Source: Zootoca vivipara
Lineage: Eukaryota
Reading direction: 5' to 3'
Assembly: GCF_963506605.1 (NCBI RefSeq)
Contig: NC_083292.1
Coordinates: forward strand, 15,190,001 to 15,254,000
DNA: 64,000 bases
Every line of letters begins with the position of its first letter. Within the stretch, counting starts at the first letter, position 1. Of this stretch, positions 24,182 to 43,452 are shown in pieces. The position numbers and the translations under genes are program-made. The notes beneath the pieces are model-generated. The model did not search any database, had not been told where the DNA came from, and saw only the letters and a list, made by a program, of their open reading frames with translations.

Positions 24182-25556
24182 GGCGACGGGCGCTCGCTCG
24201 CTCGCAGCACAGGAGGAGGACAGCCCCGCCCATCGAGCGCGGTGAGGGGCGGGTGTTAGTCTCGACTCGTCATAAGGGAAAAGGCTCCGTGAGGGGAATC
24301 GCGGGGAGTGGGAGCCATGAAGGGGGGCAATAACTAAAAAGAGGCCTCTCACCCTCAAAGATGATAAAGGGTCAGGGGGCGCCCCTCTCGCTAGCTCCCC
24401 ACCAGGAATTAAAAAAAATATTGGGGGCAGGGGCAGGGAAACCCCGCCCCCACATGATCGATCGCATGTTACGGCGCGCGCGCGCACTACAGTTTTGAAT
24501 GGCGATGTCCATCAAGCGCTTTAAATATTTTATTGGGCGGCGGGGCAAAGGTTCTGTGCTGATTGGTTCCTATGCTCTCCAACCCACCCACTCACCTGCA
24601 CTGCAGTCTCCAAACGGCCCAGAGCACTGAGAGCTTGGGGCTGGATTGAAAACCATCCTACAGGACCCAAGTCACCCCAAAGTTGGCCCAGCAACTTGGA
24701 ATGATACCTGGGTGCCTCGATTTGGGACCTCGCTGGATGACACGGCCCAGGGAGGGTGTTAAGAACCCACAGGGGAAACACAGCACAGCACACAAATAGG
24801 CTCACACACCCTCTTGTGATCTGCTTATGCAGTACGTATTTAGGATACCCAAGTGCTATAAATTGGGAGCCATAACTCCTGAGGTGCGATAATGTCAGAC
24901 TTCCGCTTGCTGGGCTGCAACTGCAAGACCAGTTACACCGGGCCTGAGACAAGGGTCAAGTAGTAACTGCTCTGTGGCCAAGTAGAATGCCTGACTCTGG
25001 GACAAAACTAGGCTTTATTTCACCTGGGTCAGACCCAGTTTGGCACACACCCACCCTTGCACATTTGCATACACACACACAGGCCTGGAGCCTCAATGGT
25101 GCCTCTCTGGAGGCTTCACCCGAAGCAAAAAAATCTGGCTAACTATGGCTCTGCATGACTTAAGCATGTTTTGTCCATGCACGTCCCTAGCCAATGGTGA
25201 CACAAGAGATCATGTGTGTGTGTTTGCAACAGTTGTATAAATGCTTTGTGCATCCTTTGTTCCACACTTGCTCCTTTCTGGAATTATCCTGCCGGTGCCT
25301 CTAATGCTGTGGCTTAGAATAAACTTTTTACCTTTCAACCCATTGACTCTCCATAGGCTGGGGGAGGGACAGTTTTCGGACTTGGCTCTGGAAGCAGGGT
25401 CATCTAATGATACTGAATGATACTAAATGGCACCAATACATTCAAAACAGTGCACAGAAATGATGGGACACTCACAAGATGTAGCACTGGCAGCACATTG
25501 CAACAACTTTAAAAAGAGATTACACAAATTCAGGAAGGATAACAGCTCCTAGGGAT

Positions 25557-25644
25557 CTGAAGAAGTGTGCATGCACACGAAAGCTCATACCAGTGACAAA
25601 CTTAGTTGGTCTCTAAGGTGCTACTGGAAGGAATTTTTTTATGT
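25557..25644 (+). mobile_element. 88-bp Penelope-like element fragment carrying a minimal hammerhead-ribozyme motif, inserted in a CR1 relic
   Basis: 13-bp TSD AGCTCCTAGGGAT (25544-25556 and 25645-25657); CTGAAGA-A-GTGTGCATGCACAC-GAAA-GCTC-ATAC; shares most of its sequence with 34026-34155. Confidence 0.75.
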
Positions 25645-26704
25645 AGCTCCTAGGGATGGTGGCTATGTACTGCTTCCAGTTTGGCACAGAGTCTCTCCAT
25701 TTGGTCTGAGGTAGGCTACCACTCTGCAGACCAGCTGGTGAGGATTACAAGGCTGTTATGTTCAGAGGCTTCCGGTTGGTCACCTGGAACACAATGCTGG
25801 ACTAAATGCCTTGGTCGGATCTAGCTGACAGGCTGCTCTTACATTCAGATCACTCACCAGTTCCTCTGCTTGCATAGATTCTCTCCAAGCCCTCAGCTTC
25901 TTAGGAAATCTAAATACCAGCACCTTAAATTTTACATGGCGCGAGTTCGAGAAATCCTCCTGCTTTCCATGACTTGTTGCTACTTCACCACCTTGCAGCA
26001 GAATTGTTGATTGTAAAGTTTGGGTTGAACTGGAACCAGATGTTTGGCAAAGCATTCGCATCACTTCAGAGATCCACTTTCAAGGCACAAGATCTCTGTA
26101 ATAGTATTTGGACTTGTGAATAGACCCCAAAGCTGCAGGAAGATTGTTCTTAGATAACTTATGAAAATCCAAGCAATAGGTACACACATGGTTATCTACC
26201 TCACTGAGCAGACACATGCTTTCAAGTGAAAGGGCACAGTGCCATTGTGTACATGCTCTGCCTAAGCCCCATTACAATGATGGGGAGTAAAAAAAAGTGT
26301 GCCAGCATGTTTGTGTGAGATGCTCAAAAGCTGCCATTCACTTGACTTTTTTTCTGCTAAGCCAAGCTGCTTGTTTCAGATTCATTCTCACAAATCCCAC
26401 TGCTGTACCATTCCCCCACCCCCACCCCCCGCCAAAACCTTCACTACAGAGCCTGTGGCTTGTTTGTTTTTTTAAAAGTTTATCAAAACAAAATTTACAG
26501 ACTGACATAGCTTTTAGAAAAGTAGAGCTTTCTGTTCACAAATCTGTTCCACTTCATTAAAAAATATTTAAAGTTTTCAAACCCAAGAAAAGATGCTCAA
26601 ATCAAAGTCCTGTTGCTTAATTAGCCAAAACCTACTTTCTGAGCCCCTAACCTTAGGAGAGGGAATTTCTATAGCAATCTGAATAAATGAATGAAAGTAA
26701 AATG

Positions 26705-29700
26705 TTAGTGGTGATGATGTTTTCTCTTTTCAGTCAGGAGAGTCATAACCGTGGCATAGAAAATATATCCCAGGAGGAGGAGGAAGGTACAGGTCACTGG
26801 ACTGATGCAGAACCACGAGGCAATGAAGTATACCATGAGTAAAGAAAGGAGAGTCCTGTAGCTTGCCAGAAACCGAAGGCTGACTCTTGGCTGTTGAATC
26901 TGCCCCAGCCTCTGCTGCCTCAGTGGGCTGTGCCTGGCCTTTTCCACAAGGGAGGGGTTGGTGAGATGGTAGCGGCAGAAGCTGCCAAGGAAGTTCTCTT
27001 TGGCACAAAGTCTCTCCATTTGGTCTGCAAACTAAGCATGGAGGGGGAAAAAGTCAATGCAAATAAGGAATGTTTGGTAAACACTTATGTCTGGATGATG
27101 AGAAATTAAGGACCGACTTCTTGATAGGTTTTGTCCTTTTGGAAAGGACCTGAATCAGTCTATTCTGCCCAACACACAAGCCCACTTTCAGCTTCAGGAA
27201 TGCAGTCAAAAGGAGCTCCCTTTAATGCAGCTGTTCAGGAAAGCCAAAGGTAGAGAATAACACCTGTCATATATGTTTAAACCTGCCAAGAGCACCAGCA
27301 ATTCCCCAAGCAGAGAATGTTGGCTTTCTTGGAGTGGGACTGATACCTTCGGGGGCAGAGCACATCTAGGGTGCGATACCATTAAGGGGTTGGATTCCTT
27401 CTCCAGCCTTTGCCACTGGACCAGGAGATCCACTTGGAGGCTTCATCCTACATCTTCCAGGAAGATGATCACACAAAGGAGAGGACCAGCCTGGCCCCAT
27501 TCATGGGCCAAAACAGCTTCCTTCCTCCTTTACTACCAGGGAAAAGCCTCAGCTCCAATTGCTGTTGGGTCTGAGACTGGAGGGAGAGTCTGGCAGCATC
27601 CAGAAGATGAAGGGCTGTTGCTGGGTGTGTGTGTCAGGGTTTACGGTGGTATATGATTACAGTGTGTTCCTTGTAAACTGCCTTGAAAAGCAACAGATTG
27701 AAATGAAAGGTGTCAATCTTCTGAACAGAAAGGAGCAGGGCAAGCACTGCGGAAAGAACACCCAGAGTGTATAGTTTTGGACATATGGACTCAGAAGGGC
27801 AGCAAGGAGATTTTGCACAGCACTTACTCGCTCATTAATGGCTGAGGACAGCCGAAACAGCAACCTCACAAGAGTGGTGCTTTCGTAACTTCGGATAGGC
27901 TGAAGCTCAGGATCTCCCTGGTACTCCACCTCAAACCTGCGTAGGCCGTTGATGATCTAGGAGAAGAGTTGTACTTTTAAGTTGTACCCTTACAAGGCGT
28001 TGAGCTTCAAGACTTTTTTTTTACAAGGCGGCAGCTCTTCAAAATTTTAAGAGCTATACAGTACAGGCTAGGCCATTGCAGACCCATTTAAGTCATAAAG
28101 GTGCTACAGGCAGAATTCAGGCAAGGTTACAGCAGCAGACCGAGATTGGCCTGCTTTTCAACTCATTAGATCCAACGCTTTATCAGTTTTTCTTTTTGAA
28201 GTTAAGAAAGATGTATTATACAGTGGTACCTCTAGTTATGAACTGAATTCGTTCCAGAGGTCCATTCTTAACCTGAAACTGTTCTTAACTAGAGGCGTGC
28301 TTTCGCTAATGGGGCCTCTTGCTGCCGCTGTGCCTCCAGCACACAATTTCCGTTCTCATCCTGGGGCAAAGTTCTTAGCTTGAGGTAACTCTTCCAGGTT
28401 AATGGAGTTTGTAACCTGAAGCATTTATAACCTGAGGCGTTTGCAACTCGAGGTACCACTGTACCTCTTAGAGGAATTCCAGTAAAGAACACAAAATCCT
28501 CTAACACTACTGGGGTGGGGTCTGGGGGTTGGCCTAAGCCTCTAAAACCCTTCCAAGGAGTGTTGAACAAGGGTTGTTTTGGCCCTTAATCTGGACTCAA
28601 ATCCTCAGCTACTCACAAGATTGCTGAAAAATTAATGTTGACTGCAACCTAACAAAACTGGCCAGGCCAGCCACCCTCTTACCTGGTACCTGCCAAGAGG
28701 TGTGAGAATCAGCCCGTCTTCACTCTCAATGCAGTCTGGAAGCTGCTTCTTCCCATTCTTATCCTGAGCTGCCCCCCAGTTCAACATCAGCTGGCTCAGC
28801 TGGGCTTCATTCAACTGGCAAACATCAATTTGAAAATGAGTTTATATAATTACTACACACCAAAAAGGCAAGCTGACACATCTTGGCAGCTAAGTAGCCC
28901 AAACACACAGCAGCAAGTGCTGAAATCTCTCCAAACAGTGTGTGAACCTGTTTCCATTTTCTCTCTTATTCCATCTAAGCCACTTCAAACACTTGAGGCC
29001 AGAAAGTGGCATATCAGAGATAAGGCTGTGCAGAGATGGGCAGGCGTGGAACTTGCACCACAGGGAAGGATCAAATTCTGCTCCTCACTTTCTCTCTGAT
29101 CCGTTTGAAGCTTAGTAATAATTTTATTATCTGTGCCCTGCCCATCTGAATGGGTTGCCCCAACCATTTCATAGCAGCCAACTCTCGGAAGTAAAGAGAG
29201 CTGTGAGCCCTCCAGGCGTGGAGACAAGATGCCTCGAAGTGAAGGCCATCACAAAAAAATACTTCCATCATTTTCTAAGAAGGGCTGTTCTATGAACACT
29301 CACTTTTTCAAAAGCTTGCCTCTCAAGTAATTTGCAGTTGCTACACAGAAAAAAAAAGCAAAATGTACAAAAGGGAAATCCTTAGGTCATCTGCTGTCTC
29401 CTGGGCAACCCTACTGCACCAAGAAACAGGAGAGCCTGCAGGAGGGAGCTACCCAAAAACACAGGAGTTCAGTGCTGAAATCTTGCTTCCAATATCCCTC
29501 TATGACTGAGTCTTAGGCAGCTAGACACATGTGTGACCCAGCCACCATGGCATGATGCCCAGAATGGTAAAGATTGTGTCATGTATGCATTGTGCCAGGC
29601 TGACTTACTTCCTGTTACAGGTTCAGGCTGTGCTGTGTGTGTATATCAATATAAATGTGTGTGTGGGTCAAGGGAATACAGCCCTTGACCCTGCAAAGGT

Positions 29701-32700
29701 CACCCATCCACAAATTAATCAGACCCCCCTGCATTGCAAATAAACATATTTGGGATATATTTTGTTGCCATACCCGAAATATCAGACAAAAGTATTCCAG
29801 GGCCTTCTCCAAGTATTCGTCTGTCTTTTTAATACTGTCTTGCCCCATTTCGTCCAAGTCATTGCCTGTGTAGGAGCCATTCAAGTCAGCTGAACCAAAG
29901 CGGAACCAGGAAAGAAAGGAATGGCTAGTTGTGGCCTCCACAGAGTGGTCTGATATGGATTTGGCTGTCTGCTGGGCCTGGCCAATGAGCTGGGACAATC
30001 GTAGCACCTGATGAAAGACAGCAAGGCAAGCAACTAAGGCAGAGGTCCCAAGAATATAAAGCTTGCCCTGACCAAGTGGCAGAGAAAGCATTGTGGGAAA
30101 CAAGAGTCTTAAGAGATCTGAGACAAACCACACCTCAGAATAAGTGCTGGCGGTTCTAGACTTCTGGTTTGCAAATCACTGGAAGTCGCTATGGTACAGT
30201 AAGGGAAGGCTCAATCTGCAGAGGTCCTGTCCGGAAGAATCTCCACTCTTTCAAACCTCCCAATTAAGCAACATGTTAGACTTGGCACCTGCAAGGCCAC
30301 CAAGGCACACCTCCCAAAATGTCACAATAACCACAAGTGGCAGCTTACCAGGCTCCTGACTTCTGGCCCAAACATCTGCTTGTACTGGAAGTCCTGTCCT
30401 TCAAGGCCATAGACATGGCTCTTCACCTTAAATGAAGCATCTGTGATGGTCGGAGCTCGGGATGACAGGAAGCTCCCTCCGAGAGACGAAGGGCTAACGA
30501 AGAGGCGGTGCTGGCGGTGAGGAAGGGCAAGGTCTGTTTCCAGAAAGAGCTGCTCTCCTGCAAAGGGATGGGGGGAAGCAACACCTTTTGCACGATTGCC
30601 CCAATGTAATCTGCTACAAGGTAGCCTTACTGCTAGCACCTTCAACTGGCAGCCCCAAAGGATGGGCTCTTATGACCACTGATCAGCTGCCCTCAGGAGG
30701 CAAAGGTGTCAGCCGCCATGATGTGATATAGCAGCCTTCTGCAGCCCCATTGTACGCCATGGTTGTGCTGGGGCTGGAGTCTAAACTATGCAGAGCAGTC
30801 CAGGTTGAGGAAAGTTGCCATGCAGGATTTGGGCTTGGGGGACTCTAAGCTTCTATTCTCATCATGGTCAGTGGCAGTGGCTCTCACACCAGGAGCTTTT
30901 CGGTAGTGATTTAGACAAGCAGCCAAGCCAGCCAGATTTGTCACCTCGTCCACCCTGATGGCTTTTCCTATTTGCCAAGGGGGAAAGCAATAGGCAGGTT
31001 GCTGAGGTAGACAGAAAGGGGGCAGGTTTCTCGTGCTCTCTGTTTTACCTTTCTGGATCATTTCAGCAAGGTTGGGCTGAGCGAAAACTTTGGCCACCCT
31101 GAAGACCATCAGGGCATTCTTGGGGCTGACCAAGTCGGTGCGGAGAGCTCGGGTCATGAAGCTGACAAAGAGCTTGGTGTACATCAACAAGTTCTCCTGA
31201 ACAAAAGAGGCCCTTTTAAGAGAACACAAAGGGACATATTACGTAGCCAGCAAGAGGACTGCCCTTTCCCTGCCACTGAGTGAGGGGGGCCTGCAAGATT
31301 ATGCTGTGAGCACCTCCAAATTGGGAGGATGTGCATTCCAAGCAGGCAAGAATTTAAGGAGACAAGGCTTAGGAAGCCTCCTCACTTTGGTGACAGGTTC
31401 TTTTCTTACTTCCATGACAATGACCTTCACTAACAAGGGCAGAGCAGGAATTGGGGACAAGTCTGATACAGCAAAGCTTCTCCGTGTGGGCACCCACAAC
31501 CACTGCAGTCATTCACAAGTCAAAACAGGGACACAAGTGGCCACCAGTGGCAAAGGGTCACTGCCCAGATCAGACCTTTTGTATTCCAAAGCATTTGGAG
31601 GGGCACCAGGCTGGGGAAGGCTGGCCTGGAACCATCATACACGGCTCTCAACCTGCTCACTGTGAGTTTCCCCTCCATCTGCAGTGACTCAGACCATCCT
31701 AACACCCACCATTTCTCTGGCACGCTGCGAGGCAGGGACGACTCGACACTCGGAAGGGGCTTCTCAGGCGCATATCTCCAAGGCTGCAAGTAGCTCAGCC
31801 ACATCTCCAGTACCTGGGACAAGAAGTTTAGTTTTTCATTACAGTTGGTTTCACTGAACAGTTGTGTTCAGCAACTAGTTTCCCTGAACTTGTGGACTTT
31901 GTGAAGATTTGGGTCAGCAGCCTTGTCCTACTGGCTTTCCCACCCACTCAACACACACAGAGATGACAGAGTCAGAAGTGGAAACTCTGTGGTGGTGGTG
32001 ATGAGCAGGTCTTTCGGTTAGCACATAAAAGCTTCCTTGTCAATCTGTGCCGACTTACCTATGCTATCCATGCAGCCCTTAGCACTTGTGATGAGGTGCA
32101 GGTGCAAAACAGTTTTGAAAACCAGGGTCGGCCTTTTTATAAAAGCAACAACAGACAAATTCCAGGTGATGCTTATCCACTGGGATGCCAGCCCAGACAC
32201 CTATTGGCTTTCTAAGCCTTTGGCAAAAAGATCGTGACATTTTCATGCTTTTTCCTATGCTTTATGAGGACTAGCAACTTGATCCCACTTTTTTTTTAAG
32301 GCCACATTTCCAAAATTTACAAGAATGGAAAAATGCTGCATGCTGGAAAAAAATTGGCCCTAACACTCTCCTCTGTTCAGCACAGTCCACACAAAACAGA
32401 ACGTTCAATGGAGGTACTTACAGCTCTGAATGAAGCATCCAAGGGCCAGTGACCAAAGCAGTGCTGCAGAAATATGTAGAGTTTTTGCTGAACGAATCGG
32501 GGTATCACAATTCTGCAAACACATGAGAGATCCCCCCAAGATAAGATAAGCAAAGCAAAGCAGGAGGCAAGAATAACATTTGGGTATGGAAACAGAGAGG
32601 CGTCTCCAGCTCAATGTACCATACAGATGTCCACTCTATGCATGCTTGTGTGTTTTTAAAAGGAGGCTGTGAAATGTGCTTAGTTTCTTGGTTTATGCCA

Positions 32701-35700
32701 CAGAGGGAATCTGTGATTTTTATTCCATTCTCTTCTTCAGGGAACAGAGATAGGATTCATGGCACAGGAAAAATCATGAGAGCTGGCCCTCTCCTGCAGG
32801 TTTACTCCCTGATCCACAGGGTGCTGACCTGAACAAGCCTAGAACAAACCTACCTCTTGAATTCCTCCAGCGGGCTGGCAGTGTGGGAATGCCCAGAAGG
32901 AGAAACTGAATCCGGCTTCAGGCTGTTGCTGAAAGCATGGAGGTGCTTCACGAGTAGCCGGATGACCAAGACGTGCTCCTCCGTTGGCTTAAACGACTCC
33001 TGGATCAGAAGCAGAAGCAAGAGGAAGAGGAGCAGGGGAAGAGGAAAAAGGAGTAAGTCCTCTCCCTGCCAGAAAGGAAGGCCAGGAGGGAGGAGGGGGT
33101 GAAGAGAAAGGGCGAAGAGAGCTGAAGCGCTACAGAGCAGAGCACAGAGGTGTCCGCAGACCCTTTAGTTTAGTTCCCGGCCAACCAAATTGCAGAACTG
33201 AAGTGTGTCCCACACTTCCATCCTGAGTGTAGGAAGGCAATTTCGCCTACTGCTGAGAAGGGAGTGAGCAACTCATTCCAGTACAGATGTGACTAAGTTG
33301 CCCAGGGCTGTTTACAAAGTGGCTCAAACTACTTTGCCTTCCTGACCACACTCAGGGCATCCGCTGCAACCACCCGCCCCGCAGAAAGCACAAGCACAAC
33401 ATCCGCCCACCAGCCAAATGTTGCCAATGAAGCTTTGCAATCACGGGATAAGAAAAAGGATCCCCTTGTGGACTGAGGAAAGGTTAAGGAACAGGAAGTA
33501 GAGACTGGGAACAAATTAAGACAGTTCTCCCAATGGCGGAATGAAAGAAACAGGGTCCCCAAAGGAGGACAGGTACTTTTTAACTTGCTCATAAAACATC
33601 TATGGAGCTTAGGGGTAAGCAGTGAGGAAGCAAGGTTTGTTAACGATACCGAATTGTTCAGGGTGATTAAAACAAAATGGAATCGTGAGGAGCTCCAAAA
33701 TGATATCTCCAAACTAGGTGAATGGGCAGTTGGGTGACAAGTGCAATTCAATGTAAGCAGCATTAAGTGATGCACATATCGGGGTTAAAACAAACAAACA
33801 AACCCACACCCCAATTCCACCAATAAGCTCAAAAAGTCTGAACTGGCAGTGACATACTATGCACTTCCCCTTTGCTGCTTCACCTTAGGCAGCAAAATGC
33901 CTTGGAACAGCCCTGCCAAATGTGGCTGGACTTCCGACTTCCATCAGCCCCAGTCACAATGGCAAATGACGGGAGTTGCAGGGCAGCAATATTGCGAAAG
34001 ATAAATGTTTCCCCCTTCTGCAGTGTATCTGAAGAAGTGTGCATGCACATGAAAGCTCATACCTATGACAAACTTAGTTGGTCTCTAAGGTGCTACTGGA
34101 AGGATTTTTTTTCCCCCGACTACGTCAGACCAACACGGCTGCCTACCTGTAACAACCCCCTTCTGCAGTGAGGGAAAAACCGCTTTGCTATGCTTAAACT
34201 GAGAATCCCAGCTGATCAAGATTTTTCTCCCCTCTCAAAATATTTGGTATGGCTGTGGACAAGGTGTAGCCATGCATTACCACCTAGGTCACCTTCCTAG
34301 TCTTTATTACATTATTATTATTACCTTAAACCCTGAGGTGTAGAACACTTTTTCTGGTTGCTCCTTTCTGGGGCCCACCACAATTCCAGTGAAGAGGCCC
34401 ATTTTATAGGAGGCAGTGGGATGGAAGTTAATGCACCAAAAATCTCACCTTTAGGGAGGAGATTCACGAGGTGATCCTAACACAGCAAACTCCTAATAAT
34501 TCCCAGCATCTAAAATGATGCTGTAACCACTTTCTAAATCATGAAGACTAGAAAGCTGCTCTTGAAAATAATATAAAGGCAGGATCTTCACGAATGAACA
34601 CCACACACAATGCCCTTTTGACTGGCCCCTGTCACCACCAAGGAATTGAAGGGATGAAGGAAAACAAAGAAACAATCCCAGCAGCCATGATCTGTGCATG
34701 CACATTTTTGTTACAATCTGCAAACATGCAGTCCCCCAGACGAGTCCTTTCAAGCTGTCTATGGGGTTTTTAGCCCTGTGCAGCTGCTCTTAACTGGAAG
34801 CGGATTATGATGATGTACGTATGTGTTTTTATTAAAAAAAGATACCCACATACACACTGAATCAAGGCAAGACTAATGCTGTCCCCAAGCTCCTCTTTCA
34901 TCGACAGGATCAGGGTGAGAAAGCGGCACACAGCCCAGTTAGCAAAGCAAACGTCTGTGGCAAAGGGGTGCTCCAAACCTCTCCTTTCATCAAGACTTGC
35001 AAGCAGACCCCGGTGCTCTTCCTAATCCAGGGATGGGCAGCATCTTTTCAGATATTGCAGAGATTCCCAGCAGTCCATGTGGCCAATGGTCAGGGGTGAT
35101 GGGACCTGGTAGGTAGTCTGGAGGTTCTCCATAGGTTCCCCACCTGTTCTAAGCTGTGCTGGGCCTTAAAAGGCTTCATCTCTTCTCTGCAGTTATCACC
35201 CACTGGCATATTCCAGGAGTTAGAGAGGAGAAGCTGCTAGCTAAATGGCTTTTGTGCTCAAGCTCGTGAACAGCTGATCTAACTGGACATGGGCTTTCCT
35301 AGCAATGCCGTGGCAGCTTCTGACACACTCAAAGTCACCAGACTCTGGCAACTCCATAGAAAGGAGAAGCCCGACACATTTCCCCCTCCTTGTGTGGGTG
35401 GAGCATCTCAGGAGGTTGTTGCTGTCTAGGGTAAGGAACTGGGAGAATGAGCGACATTTGGGAAAATCCATTACCTGGACTTGGCATTGTTTTCTGTGCT
35501 CCCTGGGAAATAATAGGCCCACAGGAGCAGGCCCACGTCACTCTCAAAATCCTCTTTACAACAGCAGCCCCACAGAATGAACTTTTCCACCCACCCCCCA
35601 ATGTCTGCCCAGAGCACACTGCAAACTGTAGGAAGGATCTTTCCTTTTTTAATTTTTAGACAAATAAAATGAAATCGGGGGGGGGGGAGGAGAAAGAAAG

Positions 35701-38700
35701 AAAAGAAAACTGAAAATACTTGGTATGTGTGGAGGGCCTGGAAGCTGGATTGGGCAGGATTACTGCGGTGGGCACTGGAGATACTGAGCCGGTATTGGAG
35801 AACCTCCAGCTGAGAGACACAACACAAAAGGGGGGAGCGGGGGGGGGGTAGAAGAGGCAAACACAAAAATGGAAAGAAACAGGGGGGAAACAACCAGTGA
35901 GAATGAGCCCAGGAAGGAAGGGGGGACAAGGGGAAAAAAACAAAAAGCAAAACCCAAGAATGAGTCACAAATGAATGACAAATACAACCAATGGGAAGAG
36001 GGACACACAACAGCAACAACAACAACAGCAACACATCCTTGGAGCAAAATAGCCTGAAGCAAAGTCTGACCCCCCTTTTCTCACGTTGCGCAAACATTTT
36101 CAGGATGCAAGCTCTTCTCTGGAACCCCAACGCCAAGGTGTTTTGGCAGCGAGGGACAGCAGAGAAGAATTAGGCAGCAAGGGCTGGGGGCTCCTGGATT
36201 GTGGGTGTTTGGCTCAAAATGGCAAAACTGGAGAGAAGCTGGGATTTCTCTCTACGCAGCAAGGCAGTTCTCACACACATTTTGGCTCCTGGAACTGTGG
36301 AGGTGGTTCGAGACTTTGCAGCAACAGTTAGAATTTAACGTCAACAACTGGATTCTAGGAAACCCAAGTCACAGTTATGAGCCTCAAGATTTACCAGGAC
36401 TTTTCCAATCAGCTTTTGCATCGTGTTTGGGGCCTTCTGTCTGTGTCCACAAACAAGCGCCACTGGGCCCTGGCAAAGCAGCCACACAAGGAGTCCTGCA
36501 CCTTGTGCTGGGTGTGCACTGATCTGATCAAGTGTACACCAGGCCAGGCCAGGCCAGGCCAAATTCAGGTAAAAGAAGAGGCAAAGCAGCTGCAGGTGAG
36601 GATGCAACGAATCAAGGGCACTTAGCCTGGTAAACAAACACCAAGGATCTCAAGCCACTGGGAGCAAAGGCTCCAATGCAAACATCTCCCCTGCCTGCAC
36701 AGCAAAATATGCAACTGTGGGCCTGGAACTCATGATTCCCTATGAAAACATTAAGAGAAAATAGTCAAGTCAGCCTCCAAAGCTGATCAGTTGGGGGAGG
36801 GTGGAGAGAGGGAATGCCGTTTTTGCCACAAGAGAGTGAAAGCCAAAACAAAGTGTTTGTATACAGCCCCAAGACCACTCTCTTGGCAAATCTGGTTCTA
36901 AGTAGGCCGATCCCCAGACCCTGCTTTTCCTGGATCTCTCTGGCCCTGGACTCTCAAATTTAGAAATGCAGCGCAGTAGCAGCTGGCACTAGAAACTGTT
37001 ACAGATATTAAAATATGGGATGCAAACAGAATACAGTACACACAACCAACAGTGATGCCCCGCGCCTCCCTCCCTGCAACAGCATGTGGAGAAACACAAA
37101 CAGGATGGCAAGTAGGCATGAGACTGGGGGAGGAAAGAAAAGACGGGCATTTTCAAGGAAAGAAGTAGTGAACTGTATACAATGTCATGCACACTCAGAA
37201 ATACTTTGCTGAGAACTGCCAAGCATACAGGCTTCAGTAGATGACAGGTGCAGTTGATTAACATATGACTGTTTGGGGCTGGCTGGTGGCTTTACTTTTT
37301 ACTCACATATATTCCCAAGATTTTAGGGTGAAGGATGTGTGTATGTGTGCGTCAAGAAATCCAGTAAATTTAAGTATGTGCGTCAAGAAATCCACTGTAA
37401 AATTAAGTAAGAGCTGATGCCACCGCCTTCAGAAAGGAAAGTGTAACGTTTTCAGTTCAAATCCTAACTAAAGCAAGCCCCCAACCCTGCCCCCCAACCG
37501 CAGGCAATACAAGGGTGTTTTTATTTACTTGCAACATTTTTTACACCACCAATGGAAGAAAAAGTTCTCTGGATGAAATACAGAAAGGGAAATGTAAAGC
37601 ATAGCACATAAAATCAGAAACAAATTTGAAAACACCACCAGAATAAAACCTGTGATAAAGAAACCAAGTATCTACAAAGCACTAAAACGTGGGTTTAAAA
37701 AAGGGAAACTGGAAATCCTGGGAAAACAGAAAGTTCTTCACCTAGTTCTCACAAGACTGCATTTCAGGGGAGATGTGAGCATCTCTTTCCCAGGAGAGCA
37801 TTCCATAACTGGAGAGCCACCATCATACCATCATAGAGGCCCTTCCTTGCAGAACCACGTGCATCCCTATTTTGGCCACCTAGGAGAAGAAGAGCTCAGC
37901 ATCCCACAGCCAGGCTCTCCTGAGATCCGGGCACACCAGCAAAATATCCACCTAAGGCCTCTGGAATATGAATCCATTCACCTCCAGGTCTCCCCACACT
38001 TGCAGAGTGGAAAGGCTGCCAAATGCCCACACCTCAATGGGAAATGTTCCAACCACAAGAAGAGGAAAGATGTTGTCAAGACTACCACCCTTCTGCCTGA
38101 TCAAGGGTGTGCTGATATCCTTGTTGGGGCGAAGATATGCTGGGGCAGCCCCCATGGCTGCCATGAAGTCCTGAACTACCATGGAAGTTGAAACTATCCC
38201 AACATGAAATCAGAGATGGTCTCTCACTCAGGTAGGGAGGTGGGTGGTGTACCAGCAGAACCCCCAATCTGCCCCAGGTTCTCTATGCAAGAGACTCCAG
38301 GTTAGCATTAGAGTAATACTAAACCTACTGAATTCTTGCAACAACCACAGTAAGCATCATCAAGTTCAACATAAATCCCTCAAGCAAAAAAACCCCTAAG
38401 GTTTAGGGATGGCCCTTTACAGCTCCCATCCTGCAGGCAGAGAACCTTCACCCACAGAGGTCCACCAATGTTTAAATAGCATCTGATATTCAGTGAAGTA
38501 TGATTGTCATTTGGTATACTGGTTTGCTGTTATTTCATCTTGCAACTCTGTATTGCTCCCCCTTTTTTTCTTTGTTACTTTTCTTTCTTTTTTTCAGTGT
38601 CTACATGTTTTTGTAAACAACAAACATTCAATAAAAAGTTGCACTGGAGAGCAATGTTTGCCGAGAACTTTCCCTAGCATCATAATTAGGGCCTGCCAAA

Positions 38701-41700
38701 AACTGCCTACCAAATTCATGACTTTCCTCTCAGGCAGTTTTAATTACAGTCATACCTCGGTTTAAGTACGCTTCGGTTTGAGTACTTTCAGTTTAAGTAC
38801 TCCACGGACCCGTCTGGAACGCATTAATCTACTTTCCATTACTTTCAATGGGAAAGTTTGCTTCAGGTAAAGCACGCTTCAGGTTAAGTACGGACTTCCG
38901 GAATCAATTGTGTACTTAAACCGAGGTACCACTGTACTTCTAACTTGAACAACACAGACATTCCAAGAGATGCAATGCTCACAGCCTGCATACCAGCATC
39001 TGCGGGAATCAAGCTTCCCTCAGCTTTGACATAAAGTAAAGCCTTTCTCCATTGACTGGAACTCCTCTCTTGAGTGCTGATGTATCAAAGAAACCCACTT
39101 CAGCCCTAACTTGCTTTTATTTAAGTGCCAACAGCCTCTCCTCACTCTGCAGCTCTTGTCATTAAGCATTAAACAGAGCTAGGCAGCAGCAATTGCATTT
39201 CCCTGCAGCCCCTCAAACTGGGAGGCCAGCAAGCAAGACATGCCCAAGCTCAGCCCCTTACCTTGATGTGAGGGGATTGCATTTTCTGGTACATGTCCAG
39301 AGAGTAATGATGAAGCCACATTTCAACAAAAACCTAGGAAGAGAAGAACTTGTTCACTTGCCTGAATAGGACCAAAGAACCTACTACAGCAGTAGCCAGG
39401 CCTTTGGAGTGATTTCTGCTCCTGGGGTCTGGTCTGAAGCTGTTTCAAGACATAGCTCAATCAGTGTTGGACATGGCTAGTTCAAGAAACCAAGTGGTCA
39501 GGTACGTCTGTGCTAGCTGACTTGTCGTCGTCCCCCCCCCCAGATTAGGGATCTACAGAGCTTGGGATTCTGGGGCAGGGAAACAGCAGAAAGGTACTAA
39601 AAGGCAGGTAAATGCAATGAAGGCCTATGCCTAAAACCCTTTTTGATTCCTTGAACCCCTCATGGGGAAAAATGTAATCAGATAAACCTCTGTAACCTTC
39701 CAGATATTGTTGGATTCTAACTCCCAGCAGCCCACATATTACAAGGGGATGGGGAGTTGTTACCCAGCAACACTTGGGAGGGAGGCAGGCTCCCCCTCTC
39801 CTACAGGCAAAGCAAACTCTTCTTTTTCTTAAAGGTGTGTTTCCCCAGTTGCCCAGGCCCCGCCCAGAAGTAGGCCTGGTATTCCACAATTGCCTGTCCC
39901 TCACCCTGCTGAGCTAAAGTAATATCCCCGAAGAGCTTGCAGCAACAGCCAGGGCAGAGCAGTCGCTGCACCACAGCCTCCTTCCCTCCCGGGCACACCT
40001 GAAGCATGGTTTCCGATCTCCAGATCTCCTGGGAAGCGGGGTCTGCATTCACCGAAGTCTGGTGAGCAACATGTCTTTTCAGAAGGCTTGTTGGATGCAT
40101 CCCGTAGGAGCTGAACGACATTGCAGGAGATCTAGAGGGGAGGAGAAAGAAAAGACACAAATTTAAAAAACCCAGAAAGGGTCACCCAAACAGGATAGTA
40201 GAGGGAGTAGTCAGGGTTGGGCCTAAGGACGAAGTGGAGCAGGGAAAAATCTGCACTATGGCCTCCATCAGTGTAGAACAGCATTTTTTTTCCCTCCCCA
40301 AAATTGGGTTTAGTCTCCATTTCAGATGGAAATTTAGAATTCACCCACTCAAAGCTTCATTGCAAGAGCAGAGCTATACTGTTGGCTGGGATATAGAGAT
40401 GACTTCTGCTACCATCTTTGTACACCGTGAACCTGTAATCTGGAAAACTAGGACATGTACTCACCGGGGAGCAGGTGATGGGACAGCCCCTCCTGCATCG
40501 GAAGAGGAGGGGGGTGGAAGGACAATCCCTTCTGTGGGCAGGAACCACTTCAAGTACCGATCCACTAGGACAAAGTAAGCACTGTTGGACATGCTGATAT
40601 GATAGGCCGTGGAGATGTTCTGAAACACAGAGGAGAGAAAATCCCAAGTCATTCCTCTTATGGTATCAACTCAACTAGAGAACTTTATGGGTAAGCCAAA
40701 AAAAATCAAGCTACTCAAAAGCATAATTTTCTATCACACTATGTCTGGCTCCTCTTCTGTTTTCCTCTGGAGGAGCATTCCTCTATGACGGTAGCTCCCA
40801 CCAACAGCCTGGCATGGTCCATGAACCAGATTTTAACCACCCTCTCTGCCGTTTTGTGAGAAACGAGCCTGGTACACAACGTGCTACAGTGAGAGTTCAA
40901 CAGCAGAGGCAGTGAGGACCTGCTAGGAAGTGGCAATTCTGCAGGGCTCAGCCCCCCCTCGCCCCACTTGTTTAGCAACCCTACACTCCCGCCACTCTCT
41001 TCTTAGTGCAAAGCATTCAGGTGACAAGCTGAAACGGTTAAGCACACTTTAGTGCCAAGGGAAAGACTGACAGGCAGAGTATTTCAAGCACTTAAAGAAG
41101 CTATTTATACAAATATTGACTTTACACCACCAAACATCATGGCAAGTGTGGAGGGGGAGGGAGAGGTGGGTCAACAAGGTATAATCAGCAAGAGGCACGA
41201 AACTATGCTGCAACTTCTCATCTCATTTGCATAGCAAACAGTAGGCAATGCACTGAAAGAAGCAGCTGCCTTTTTGTTTACCTTCGGTGTAATCAGGCTT
41301 AATGCAAAGTAGAACATGTAATATTCAAAGGGATCTGGCAGCAGAGTCAAGGATAAAGTCCAACAGAAAACATGAAGAAGCATCAAGTCTTGGCCATTCA
41401 AGACCATCCAACAAACAAAGTGTCAATAGTCAGTGTTTTATTCTATTCTCAGGATTTGGGAGTGTGGGTGGGAGTGCCCCTTCTTGTCAAACACTTTATC
41501 AACATGGCAAGACACTTAAAAATGCAGCTAAAAACAGAAGGAAAAACAGCTAAGGGAGAAATCCAAGATAGACACTGAGAAAGATCACAGTTTGCAGGCT
41601 GCAGGCATGCAAAGAACCAAAATGACTTCCCTCCACAATGGTGGGGAAACTGGTGGGAGTGTAACAATCCGCTTGTTCCCCAGGCTTCTAAGAGCTGGCA

Positions 41701-43452
41701 GACCATGGGCTTTCCATGAAATTTATCTTCACCTGGAGGAGCCACTCATATGCAATCGCCTTGGAGCAGCTTGTGTGGCAAGGAGTTTTGAAAAGTTTTG
41801 AGTGGAATGTGCAGCCGCTGGCCCCTTCTCATGTGTTTTGGGAGAGGGAACACAACTTCCATCCAGGGCTTTGCTAAGCACAGGGCAAAGAAATCATGCT
41901 GGAAAGCTGCAAGAATCAGGATGGTCTCCCTCTCACCACCGACTGTTTGGCATCACTGAACTACTGCATGATTTGTGCCCCGGCCCAAACATACACACAA
42001 CATGAAGAGAAACTATTCTGGGCTTATTGCCCAAAGGATACTAAGGGCTAAGTTCAAGCTCAGGCCTCCAGATGGAGGGAACTGGACTTTGTTGTGGTAC
42101 AAAGAACATTCTGGTAAAATCCGCTCCTGTATTGAGGCTTTCACTGGGCCCTGAAAAGAACAATGGCATGATTAGACACAAAATGCAGACCTTATGAATG
42201 AAACAGCCCTTAAGGTGTACAAACATTTGCCCCCCCCCCCGAGATCTGGGGTGTGGAAAGCCAACAGCCACTTCTGGAGCCCTAAACCTTCCCCTTCTGC
42301 TCTGTTGTAGCCCAAGACTTTACTCAGCAAGTGGAGGAACAGGCAGAATCTGTGTGCCACAGAGAGCGGAAAAGGTTTCAAACTTACCATTTTAATTTCA
42401 ACACATCATATGAAATCAGTGGGACTTCCGCATAAAGGATTAGGAACTTAAACTGCCTACTTCATCCTTGATTCAAAGTGGTAGTGTGGATCTTATCACC
42501 TCCTTTTTCAGATACTTACAGGAAGGTAGGAGACAGAGAAATCGTATCTGTACTCTTCAGCTTGGAGCTTGTAAACCAACTTCATCATTGGGCCTCTACC
42601 AAAAAAAGGCAGCAAGAGAGAAAACATTCAGGACAGGGGGTAACATCTGGAACCACATCAGAGCTCTTCCCACTGCCCTCCTGAATAAAGAGGTTTACCC
42701 AGCATCAAGAAAGTCCAAGGCAATGTTGTACTCAGTAGGGTTTGCCCTCCCTTGTAAACAACGGAGGTTCCAACCTAAAATGATGCCATCTAAGCTGCCA
42801 AAGATGCTCTCCACCAGCCAGGGAAAGATGGCATGAAGTTCCTTCCAAGGGAAGAGAAACAGAAAAGCTATTATGGGTCACCTCAAAACAAAGATACACG
42901 TTGTTTGACTCAAAGACTTCTCAGGGGCTCCAAACCACAGAAGGCATTTTCTGTCTAGAAACCAATCTGTGCCAAATTTACTACTCCCAGGAGACTCAAG
43001 ACTAACAGCTAGTGGAAATATTATAGGCCTGAACAAGTAACAAGCCTTTTACCTTGGCAGGAAAATCTTCAATGACAGTCACAAGATCATGGCACCTCTG
43101 GGCAAAAGGCTTGTTCAGACAGTCAGCCTTTAAGCTATCCTGTTTTAAACAGAAGAGAAAATAAATCCACCTCAGACAAAGCAAAGAACCCTTGATCAGT
43201 CACTTGTGAGCAGGTCATTCCCAACCTGATCAAATTGAGATGGTGAAGAACCCAGGACCTGGTCTTCCCACAATACTGACACAGTATGACTTTGCCAAGA
43301 ACCAGCAGGAGGAGCCCCTTTCCCAGGTCTCCACCCTTCCAATACATAAAAGCAGCTCTGAAACTCAGGCAAAACAGCACAGAGGTCAACTGCTGTGAAA
43401 CCCCCTTACTTACCAAGAGGTAACTGTGCTGAGGAAAGTGATGGGCAGTCAT
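26705..43452 (-). CDS. SMPD4: Sphingomyelin phosphodiesterase 4 (neutral sphingomyelinase 3), 19 coding exons, 830 aa (842 aa if the in-frame ATG at 43488 is used)
   Basis: Exons on -: 43452-43414, 43139-43053, 42841-42699, 42595-42520, 42150-42042, 41334-41282, 40619-40465, 40131-39999, 39333-39262, 35809-35720, 32999-32854, 32512-32422, 31813-31710, 31212-31049, 30557-30349, 30007-29774, 28814-28683, 27956-27828, 27031-26705; total 2493 nt. Matches recalled SMPD4: [83 protein letters not shown], plus a C-terminal hydrophobic anchor. Confidence 0.97.
28221..28461. mobile_element. Tc1/mariner (Tigger/pogo-like) MITE
   Basis: TIRs CAGTGGTACCTC/GAGGTACCACTG flanked by TA on both sides. Confidence 0.85.
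33425..33860 (+). mobile_element. Decayed CR1 reverse-transcriptase fragment
   Basis: Degenerate translation resembles the SGVPQGSVLGPVLFNLFINDL, KFADDTKLFRV and LGEWA..WQM.FNV.KCKVMHIG motifs. Confidence 0.75.
34026..34155 (+). mobile_element. 130-bp Penelope-like element fragment with a minimal hammerhead-ribozyme motif
   Basis: 15-bp TSD CCCCCTTCTGCAGTG (34011-34025 and 34156-34170); GTAT-CTGAAGA-A-GTGTGCATGCACAT-GAAA-GCTC-ATAC. Confidence 0.78.
37800..38280 (-). mobile_element. Highly decayed L2/CR1-clade LINE endonuclease region
   Basis: Frameshifted motifs LLVHHPP (xYRPP), DSFNFH (GDFNxH), QDFMAAMG and HTLDQ (HTLDL) appear in APE-domain order. Confidence 0.5.
38747..38934. mobile_element. 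Tc1/mariner (Tigger-like) MITE
   Basis: TIRs CAGTCATACCTCGGTTTAAGTAC/GTACTTAAACCGAGGTACCACTG with TA flanks. Confidence 0.85.
41335..42041 (-). other. U12-type (minor spliceosome) GT-AG intron of SMPD4
   Basis: 5' splice site GTATCCTTT (42041-42033); branch site TCCTTGAC (41353-41346) with the branch A at -13; no conventional polypyrimidine tract. Confidence 0.92.

Follow-up and report, generated by a model that had tools for sequence, protein, structure and literature searches.

An 88-bp hammerhead-bearing insert beyond the SMPD4 stop codon and its probable origin from a Penelope-like element

Within the 64,000-nt stretch of DNA analysed here (the window) lies an 88-bp insert that consists of little more than a minimal hammerhead ribozyme motif. 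An earlier note on this DNA had taken it for a short, non-autonomous retroelement with ribozyme-set ends. The question raised by the locus is whether such an insert is an element in its own right or a piece of a larger one, and what determined where it begins and ends. As set out below, the insert almost certainly represents the 3′ pseudo-LTR (pLTR) end of a Penelope-like element (PLE) that is present in high copy number. The explanation as a whole, in which a pLTR-end copy of this PLE with a true target-site duplication originated by run-off during reverse transcription and is inert at its present location, appears to us fairly probable.

The insert, its hammerhead motif and its host gene

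The insert occupies positions 25557..25644 of the forward strand and is flanked by exact 13-bp direct repeats at 25544..25556 and 25645..25657. Contigs of two related species, B and C, join position 25543 to 25645 and skip the intervening 101 bases, and the 13 letters at this junction fit either side, as expected for a single copy of the duplication. Conversely, in two other samples of organism A, contigs from both flanks enter the insert; the comparison of empty and occupied sites covered 4 of the 23 listed runs. Since organisms B and C hold the empty site, the direct repeats described in the earlier note are confirmed as a true target-site duplication. The note had also placed the start of the insert exactly at the CTGAAGA of position 25557. 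The motif does begin there, but the AT at 25555-25556 fits the duplication and the parent element alike (a 2-nt microhomology), which leaves an uncertainty of 2 nt in the 5′ boundary; the 5′ start of the window copy is given as −2..0 relative to the core. By family comparison the insert belongs to the older subfamily A, and it differs from the nearest long copies of that subfamily by 1-2 mismatches over 78 nt. Its T-rich 3′ end (25632..25644, forward strand) falls in the shorter of the two clusters in which 3′ ends of the family are found.

The window contains a second short copy, 8.5 kb from the insert, at 34011..34170 of the forward strand. This copy has the long 'tail' end, a 15-bp duplication (34011-34025 and 34156-34170) and one CpG change in stem II, and it is located in an SMPD4 intron in antisense orientation. 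The 34-nt core was matched twice in the real window and 0 times in 100 shuffles. A run of N at 2588-2724 is distant from the insert.

The host gene SMPD4 is encoded on the minus strand (26705..43136), where coding exons matching PF14724 were found between 26741 and 43136 and the stop codon at 26705-26707. The hammerhead motif is therefore antisense to SMPD4, as had been proposed. As judged from the sequence, the insert is likely to lie within the SMPD4 3′ UTR, since it is situated ∼1.05 kb beyond the stop codon and precedes the first minus-strand AATAAA past that stop (25014-25019). None of the data sets containing this stretch was recorded as RNA; two contig runs of organism A presumed to be RNA contained fractions of 0.45 and 0.21 of its words.

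On the basis of its sequence, its predicted fold and the descriptor in the available text of Cervera and De la Pena 2014 (PMC4209133), a minimal type I hammerhead motif with a damaged stem I was assigned to 25552..25591 of the forward strand. All core letters named in the earlier note were found in place, namely CTGAAGA at 25557-25563, the extra A at 25564, GAAA at 25579-25582, GCTC at 25583-25586 and ATAC at 25587-25590. Stem II is the perfect palindrome GTGTGCATGCACAC at 25565-25578, for which the predicted fold is a 5-bp stem capped by a CAUG loop, and the palindromic AGCU is located at 25582-25585. Cleavage had been predicted after C25586; this position is C17 in hammerhead numbering, and the predicted cut is therefore correctly placed. 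The attribution to the minimal type I hammerheads of PLEs was likewise borne out, as CUGANGA, the extra nucleotide, a G-C-closed stem II, GAAA, the palindromic 15.2-16.2 and UH are all present and agree with the descriptor seen in PMC4209133. According to the portion of that paper available, such motifs occur in the pLTRs of metazoan PLEs, are mostly solo and derived from truncated PLEs, and have similar counterparts in turtle and snakes. The window motif shares with them the core, the unpaired nucleotide between 9 and 10.1, G10.1-C11.1 and the palindromic 15.2-16.2, and the family as a whole shares the 4-bp helix I and the pLTR location. Unlike in the motifs described in that text, half of helix I is missing from the window copy, and helix II is a perfect 14-nt palindrome of 5 bp here as compared to 7-8 bp in the schistosome families.

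The stem I strands of the window copy (25552-25556 and 25587-25591, GGGAU/AUACC) contain one G.A mismatch. Such an imperfection had been noticed before and ascribed to a 5′ strand supplied by the target site; the mismatch is real, but the parent element owns a stem I (GUAU/AUAC), of which the target replaces only a part. The intact helix I of 4-5 bp present in the parent is thus absent from the window copy. An Rfam scan, which the earlier note had suggested, returned no match at E≤10. Fold z-scores were unremarkable for the sense strand (0.07 to −1.07) and −2.3 for the antisense strand, and were given no weight as evidence. A stem-loop predicted 3′ of the hammerhead (25591..25627, forward strand) is weak, with a z-score of only −0.8 for the 88-mer. 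The predicted energy of a 14-bp intermolecular palindrome duplex was −32 kcal/mol versus −11 to −13 kcal/mol for the double hammerhead, a comparison that is silent on co-transcriptional or protein-assisted folding.

Stem changes among 207 family copies were scattered, unpaired and mostly attributable to CpG decay, and C17-to-U variants were frequent in relatives. Similarly, the stem II variants among the 100 of 179 matches listed were mostly single unpaired mutations; one of these 100 (L240) was wholly different and fully paired, and one more was bulged. The L240 match (L240:1501-1533) is an isolated hammerhead core with a weak helix I and no PLE ORF within 1.5 kb. Being a monomer with a mismatched stem I and antisense to the host RNA, the window copy would be incapable of cleavage, and the insert at 25557..25644 is likely to be biologically inert.

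The parent element

A full-length copy of the parent element was identified at G000:C2 (locus L091), where it has a stop-to-stop frame of 925 aa with an RVT_1 domain (E 4.5e-12) and, at the C terminus, a GIY-YIG domain (E 6e-5, over the cut-off). The linker between the reverse transcriptase (RT) and the endonuclease (EN) has the form C-x4-C-x2-C (residue 760 of P0002), which conforms to the CX2-5CxxC pattern, a pattern that fails to tell Neptune from Nematis. The hammerhead is found in both pLTRs of this copy, which is laid out as a 1,358-bp partial tandem of 100% identity plus a 68-bp inverted 5′ piece. It represents a younger subfamily and shares 92% identity with the insert across 86 nt; the stretch L091:3237-7700 is a young intact element. 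As read from its anatomy and linker, the PLE is an EN+ element, probably of the Neptune/Nematis type. It resembles the elements of this type described in the accessible part of PMC8557442 in encoding RT and, at the C terminus, GIY-YIG within one ORF, in the CX2-5CxxC linker, in the partial tandem and 5′ inverted copy, and in the tail of 30-40 bp at one end. The parent protein had no match in a sequence search of the PDB.

The linkage of the motif to an ORF for RT and GIY-YIG, a point on which the earlier note had suggested a check, was evident from L091 and also from the loci of subfamily A that were picked by the endonuclease end. In 27 of these 30 loci the motif followed downstream on the same strand, mostly ∼186 nt after the ORF stop. 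Counted from the start of the core, the first ATG of the ORF comes after ∼133 nt, immediately beyond the tail. The frame was open across all 839 codons covered in 3 of 30 loci (L067, L074 and L077, with L067 being the L091 copy), and because of these open frames the family may still be active.

Exact matches to the 34-nt core numbered 17,230 genome-wide as compared to 0 for the reversed control, and exact 22-mers were counted 12,120 times for subfamily A and 21,017 times for the younger subfamilies. A family of this kind may already be present in repeat libraries. When 49 short copies were compared with 36 long copies, the same majority bases and the same minor variants were observed in both, with no diagnostic differences. 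There is consequently no sign of a separate master for the short copies. The idea of a short non-autonomous element is therefore not supported, as the 88 bp represent the terminal part of an autonomous element with RT and GIY-YIG.

Further tandem arrangements were observed. At L214:520-2942 (G000:C1:2776800-2780600), 598-bp units that are 99.9% alike follow each other head to tail and carry four hammerheads. The endonuclease end, pLTR and tail, together with the initial portion of the ORF, make up each unit, which is a retrozyme-like organization, and the array would be a natural setting for dimer cleavage if the predicted activity exists. At L116/L117 (G000:C1:1898773-1898989), two short units stand head to tail, and the first passes through the tail into the beginning of the ORF and meets the second at the −4 point.

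Where copies end and how short copies may arise

The positions at which copies end were taken from a sample that was collected in genome order across the first 8.6 Mb of C1, using a 22-mer from the 3′ part. It yielded 97 copies from 100 listed places, corresponding to 84 insertion events; 30 loci that had been ordered by their similarity to the window copy were excluded from the end statistics and from the comparison of short and long variants. The 3′ ends of the 97 copies were bimodal, with 51 at +80..+106, 43 at +123..+140, 2 between these clusters and 1 below +80. The 5′ ends showed a sharp wall: 33 copies ended at −14..0, none at −29..−15 and 16 upstream of −39 (33/49 versus 0/16, Fisher p 9e-7). 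Counted by event, 24 of the 84 lay inside the motif, 40 at −14..0, 2 at −39..−15 and 18 further upstream (p 1e-5). In agreement with the sample, an upstream 22-mer occurred 2,244 times genome-wide as compared to 12,120 occurrences downstream (18.5%). The modal 5′ end was −4, shared by 12 of 32 short copies. The wall was weaker in the younger subfamilies, where 5 of 30 copies ended at it, 0 at −39..−15, 20 were long and 5 ended inside the motif.

Head-to-head inverted insertions made up 40 of the 84 events and single, non-inverted insertions the other 44. In the inverted insertions L105, L201, L206 and L192 the axis is at or near the stem II palindrome, and in most cases the long tail is on one arm and the short end on the opposite one. 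L156 has telomere-like TTAGGG letters at the junction of its inverted pair, adjoining a −4 end. Exact duplications were found in a minority of copies: at least 8 letters in 4 of 30, and 7-12 letters in 14 of 97.

In 56 of 65 long copies, from subfamilies with differing spacer, a TATA-type box has its first base at −35, which is 31 nt upstream of the modal 5′ end. The usual distance from TATA to start is 30-31 nt. Furthermore, in 8 of 12 copies the modal end is preceded by a G in place of the T of the element (p 0.0015), and a copied cap would add such a G. Four of these eight extra Gs can be explained by the duplication or by the inverted strand; once these are set aside, a G in 4 of the 8 copies left is not significant (p 0.09). 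We infer from the pile-up of 5′ ends that it marks the transcription start. By analogy with the anole PLE, the two 3′-end clusters would be sites of internal priming, as the available part of PMC11167929 describes two-site internal priming demonstrated in vitro for that element.

Under this proposal, the TATA promoter of the pLTR would start the RNA at helix I of the hammerhead. The RT would prime 85-135 nt inside, in the 5′ part of the element RNA, and would then run off the RNA 5′ end just upstream of the hammerhead, producing promoter-less stubs. Long copies would derive from read-through RNA on which priming took place at the downstream pLTR. As the promoter lies upstream of the copied part, the short copies would not be transcribable on their own. 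That the short copies are internally primed cDNAs run off a pLTR-started transcript is, in our judgment, somewhat favoured; the stricter version, in which the stubs are strong-stop-like products of a capped RNA that begins at helix I, is primed 85-135 nt inside and is copied to the cap, we regard as evenly poised. Counter to the start-site reading, 24 of the 84 events stop within the motif, and the window copy starts at −2..0 rather than −4. Counting against it as well, the sections seen of PMC2377424 and PMC4209133 describe for D. virilis Penelope a TATA-less internal promoter and a start well upstream of the hammerhead, while putative TATA and Inr motifs are reported for the rotifer Penelope pLTR in the part seen of PMC3846280.

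RNA-seq data (three runs of one study, ∼6% of each run) revealed neither a peak of molecule starts at −7..−4 nor RNA ends at the predicted cut. Both are weak tests. For the starts this is so because the reads are mostly passengers in host RNAs: 85-93% of the aligned reads continue into unlike sequence. Read depth on the young element was 0-12 over the ORF versus hundreds to thousands over the short part.

Alternatively, the wall might be structural, in that the RT stalls, or the cDNA folds back via stem I or the stem II palindrome, as soon as reverse transcription of a longer read-through RNA has covered the hammerhead. Consistent with this, the wall coincides with the end of the stem I 5′ strand, a one-base fold-back extension would likewise add a G, and several of the 40 head-to-head inverted events are centred on the palindrome (+8/+8). 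However, the wall is also seen in the 44 non-inverted events (16 at −12..0), stem I comprises just 4 bp, the TATA spacing is constant across subfamilies, and long fold-back junctions at +35 form no dominant class among the inverted events. We therefore hold a structural wall to be rather unlikely.

It is very improbable that the wall represents the 3′ splice acceptor (TTTCAG/TGTAT) of a pLTR intron. Subfamily A does have a pyrimidine tract and a CAG ending at −6, and an intron of D. virilis Penelope ends at helix I according to the available text of PMC4209133, but the main young subfamily has CAC at this place and nevertheless includes copies that end at the wall. In addition, the mode is −4 and not −5, the short copies show no common upstream exon, and no GT-AG joint was seen among the RNA-seq joints listed.

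A self-propagating non-autonomous element or retrozyme with ribozyme-set ends, as which the earlier note had read the insert, is largely refuted and the least probable of these readings: although copies of 90-140 bp are very abundant, the four-unit 598-bp hammerhead tandem (L214) exists elsewhere in the genome, and non-LTR retrozymes derive from PLEs according to the part seen of bioRxiv 10.64898/2026.07.22.740005, ends at the cleavage site (+28..+32) left no footprint, being found in just 4 of 97 sampled copies and in none of 30 from the younger subfamilies, no variants are private to short copies, the window copy is monomeric, the promoter-like boxes are not included in it, and the RNA-seq sample, a weak test, contained no RNA ends at the cut.

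Relation to known elements and meaning

The motif and its pLTR setting have already been published, and the insert is an ordinary stub. In a literature search covering the texts available in part, the fixed 5′ start of short copies was not stated, and the supplementary figures of PMC4209133 and PMC11167929 (Fig. S2) may show it. A further comparison is with PAc, a PLE of Anolis carolinensis that, according to the sections seen of PMC11167929, has two 3′-end sites that give the tail and a hammerhead at the junction of pLTR and ORF, with no RNA-seq ends at the cut site, all of which it has in common with the family described here. The same sections indicate that the PAc hammerhead cleaves only with protein and is dispensable for insertion in vitro. 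PAc differs in belonging to another clade, Poseidon, and in having an ORF that begins in stem II; in the family described here the first ATG is located past the tail. Non-LTR retrozymes, as characterized in the accessible part of bioRxiv 10.64898/2026.07.22.740005, are likewise PLE-derived and non-coding and have a type I hammerhead; they consist of tandem units with at least two hammerheads, in contrast to the solo insert with a target-site duplication found here.

Dead stubs of this kind number in the tens of thousands, and the insert itself is of little importance. The value lies in the family, which offers young intact copies together with a quantitative footprint of the poorly understood replication of PLEs, in which 5′ ends stop sharply 31 nt downstream of a TATA box, 3′ ends fall into two clusters and no trace of cleavage is seen. 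This footprint makes testable where the RNA of vertebrate PLEs starts and what purpose the hammerhead serves. If the run-off proposal is true, the genome maps the in vivo transcription start of a PLE together with its two priming sites, and the hammerhead would be the first structure of the mRNA. This would point to a role of the hammerhead at the RNA 5′ end, such as in leader processing, translation or RNP assembly, and not in defining the ends of insertions.
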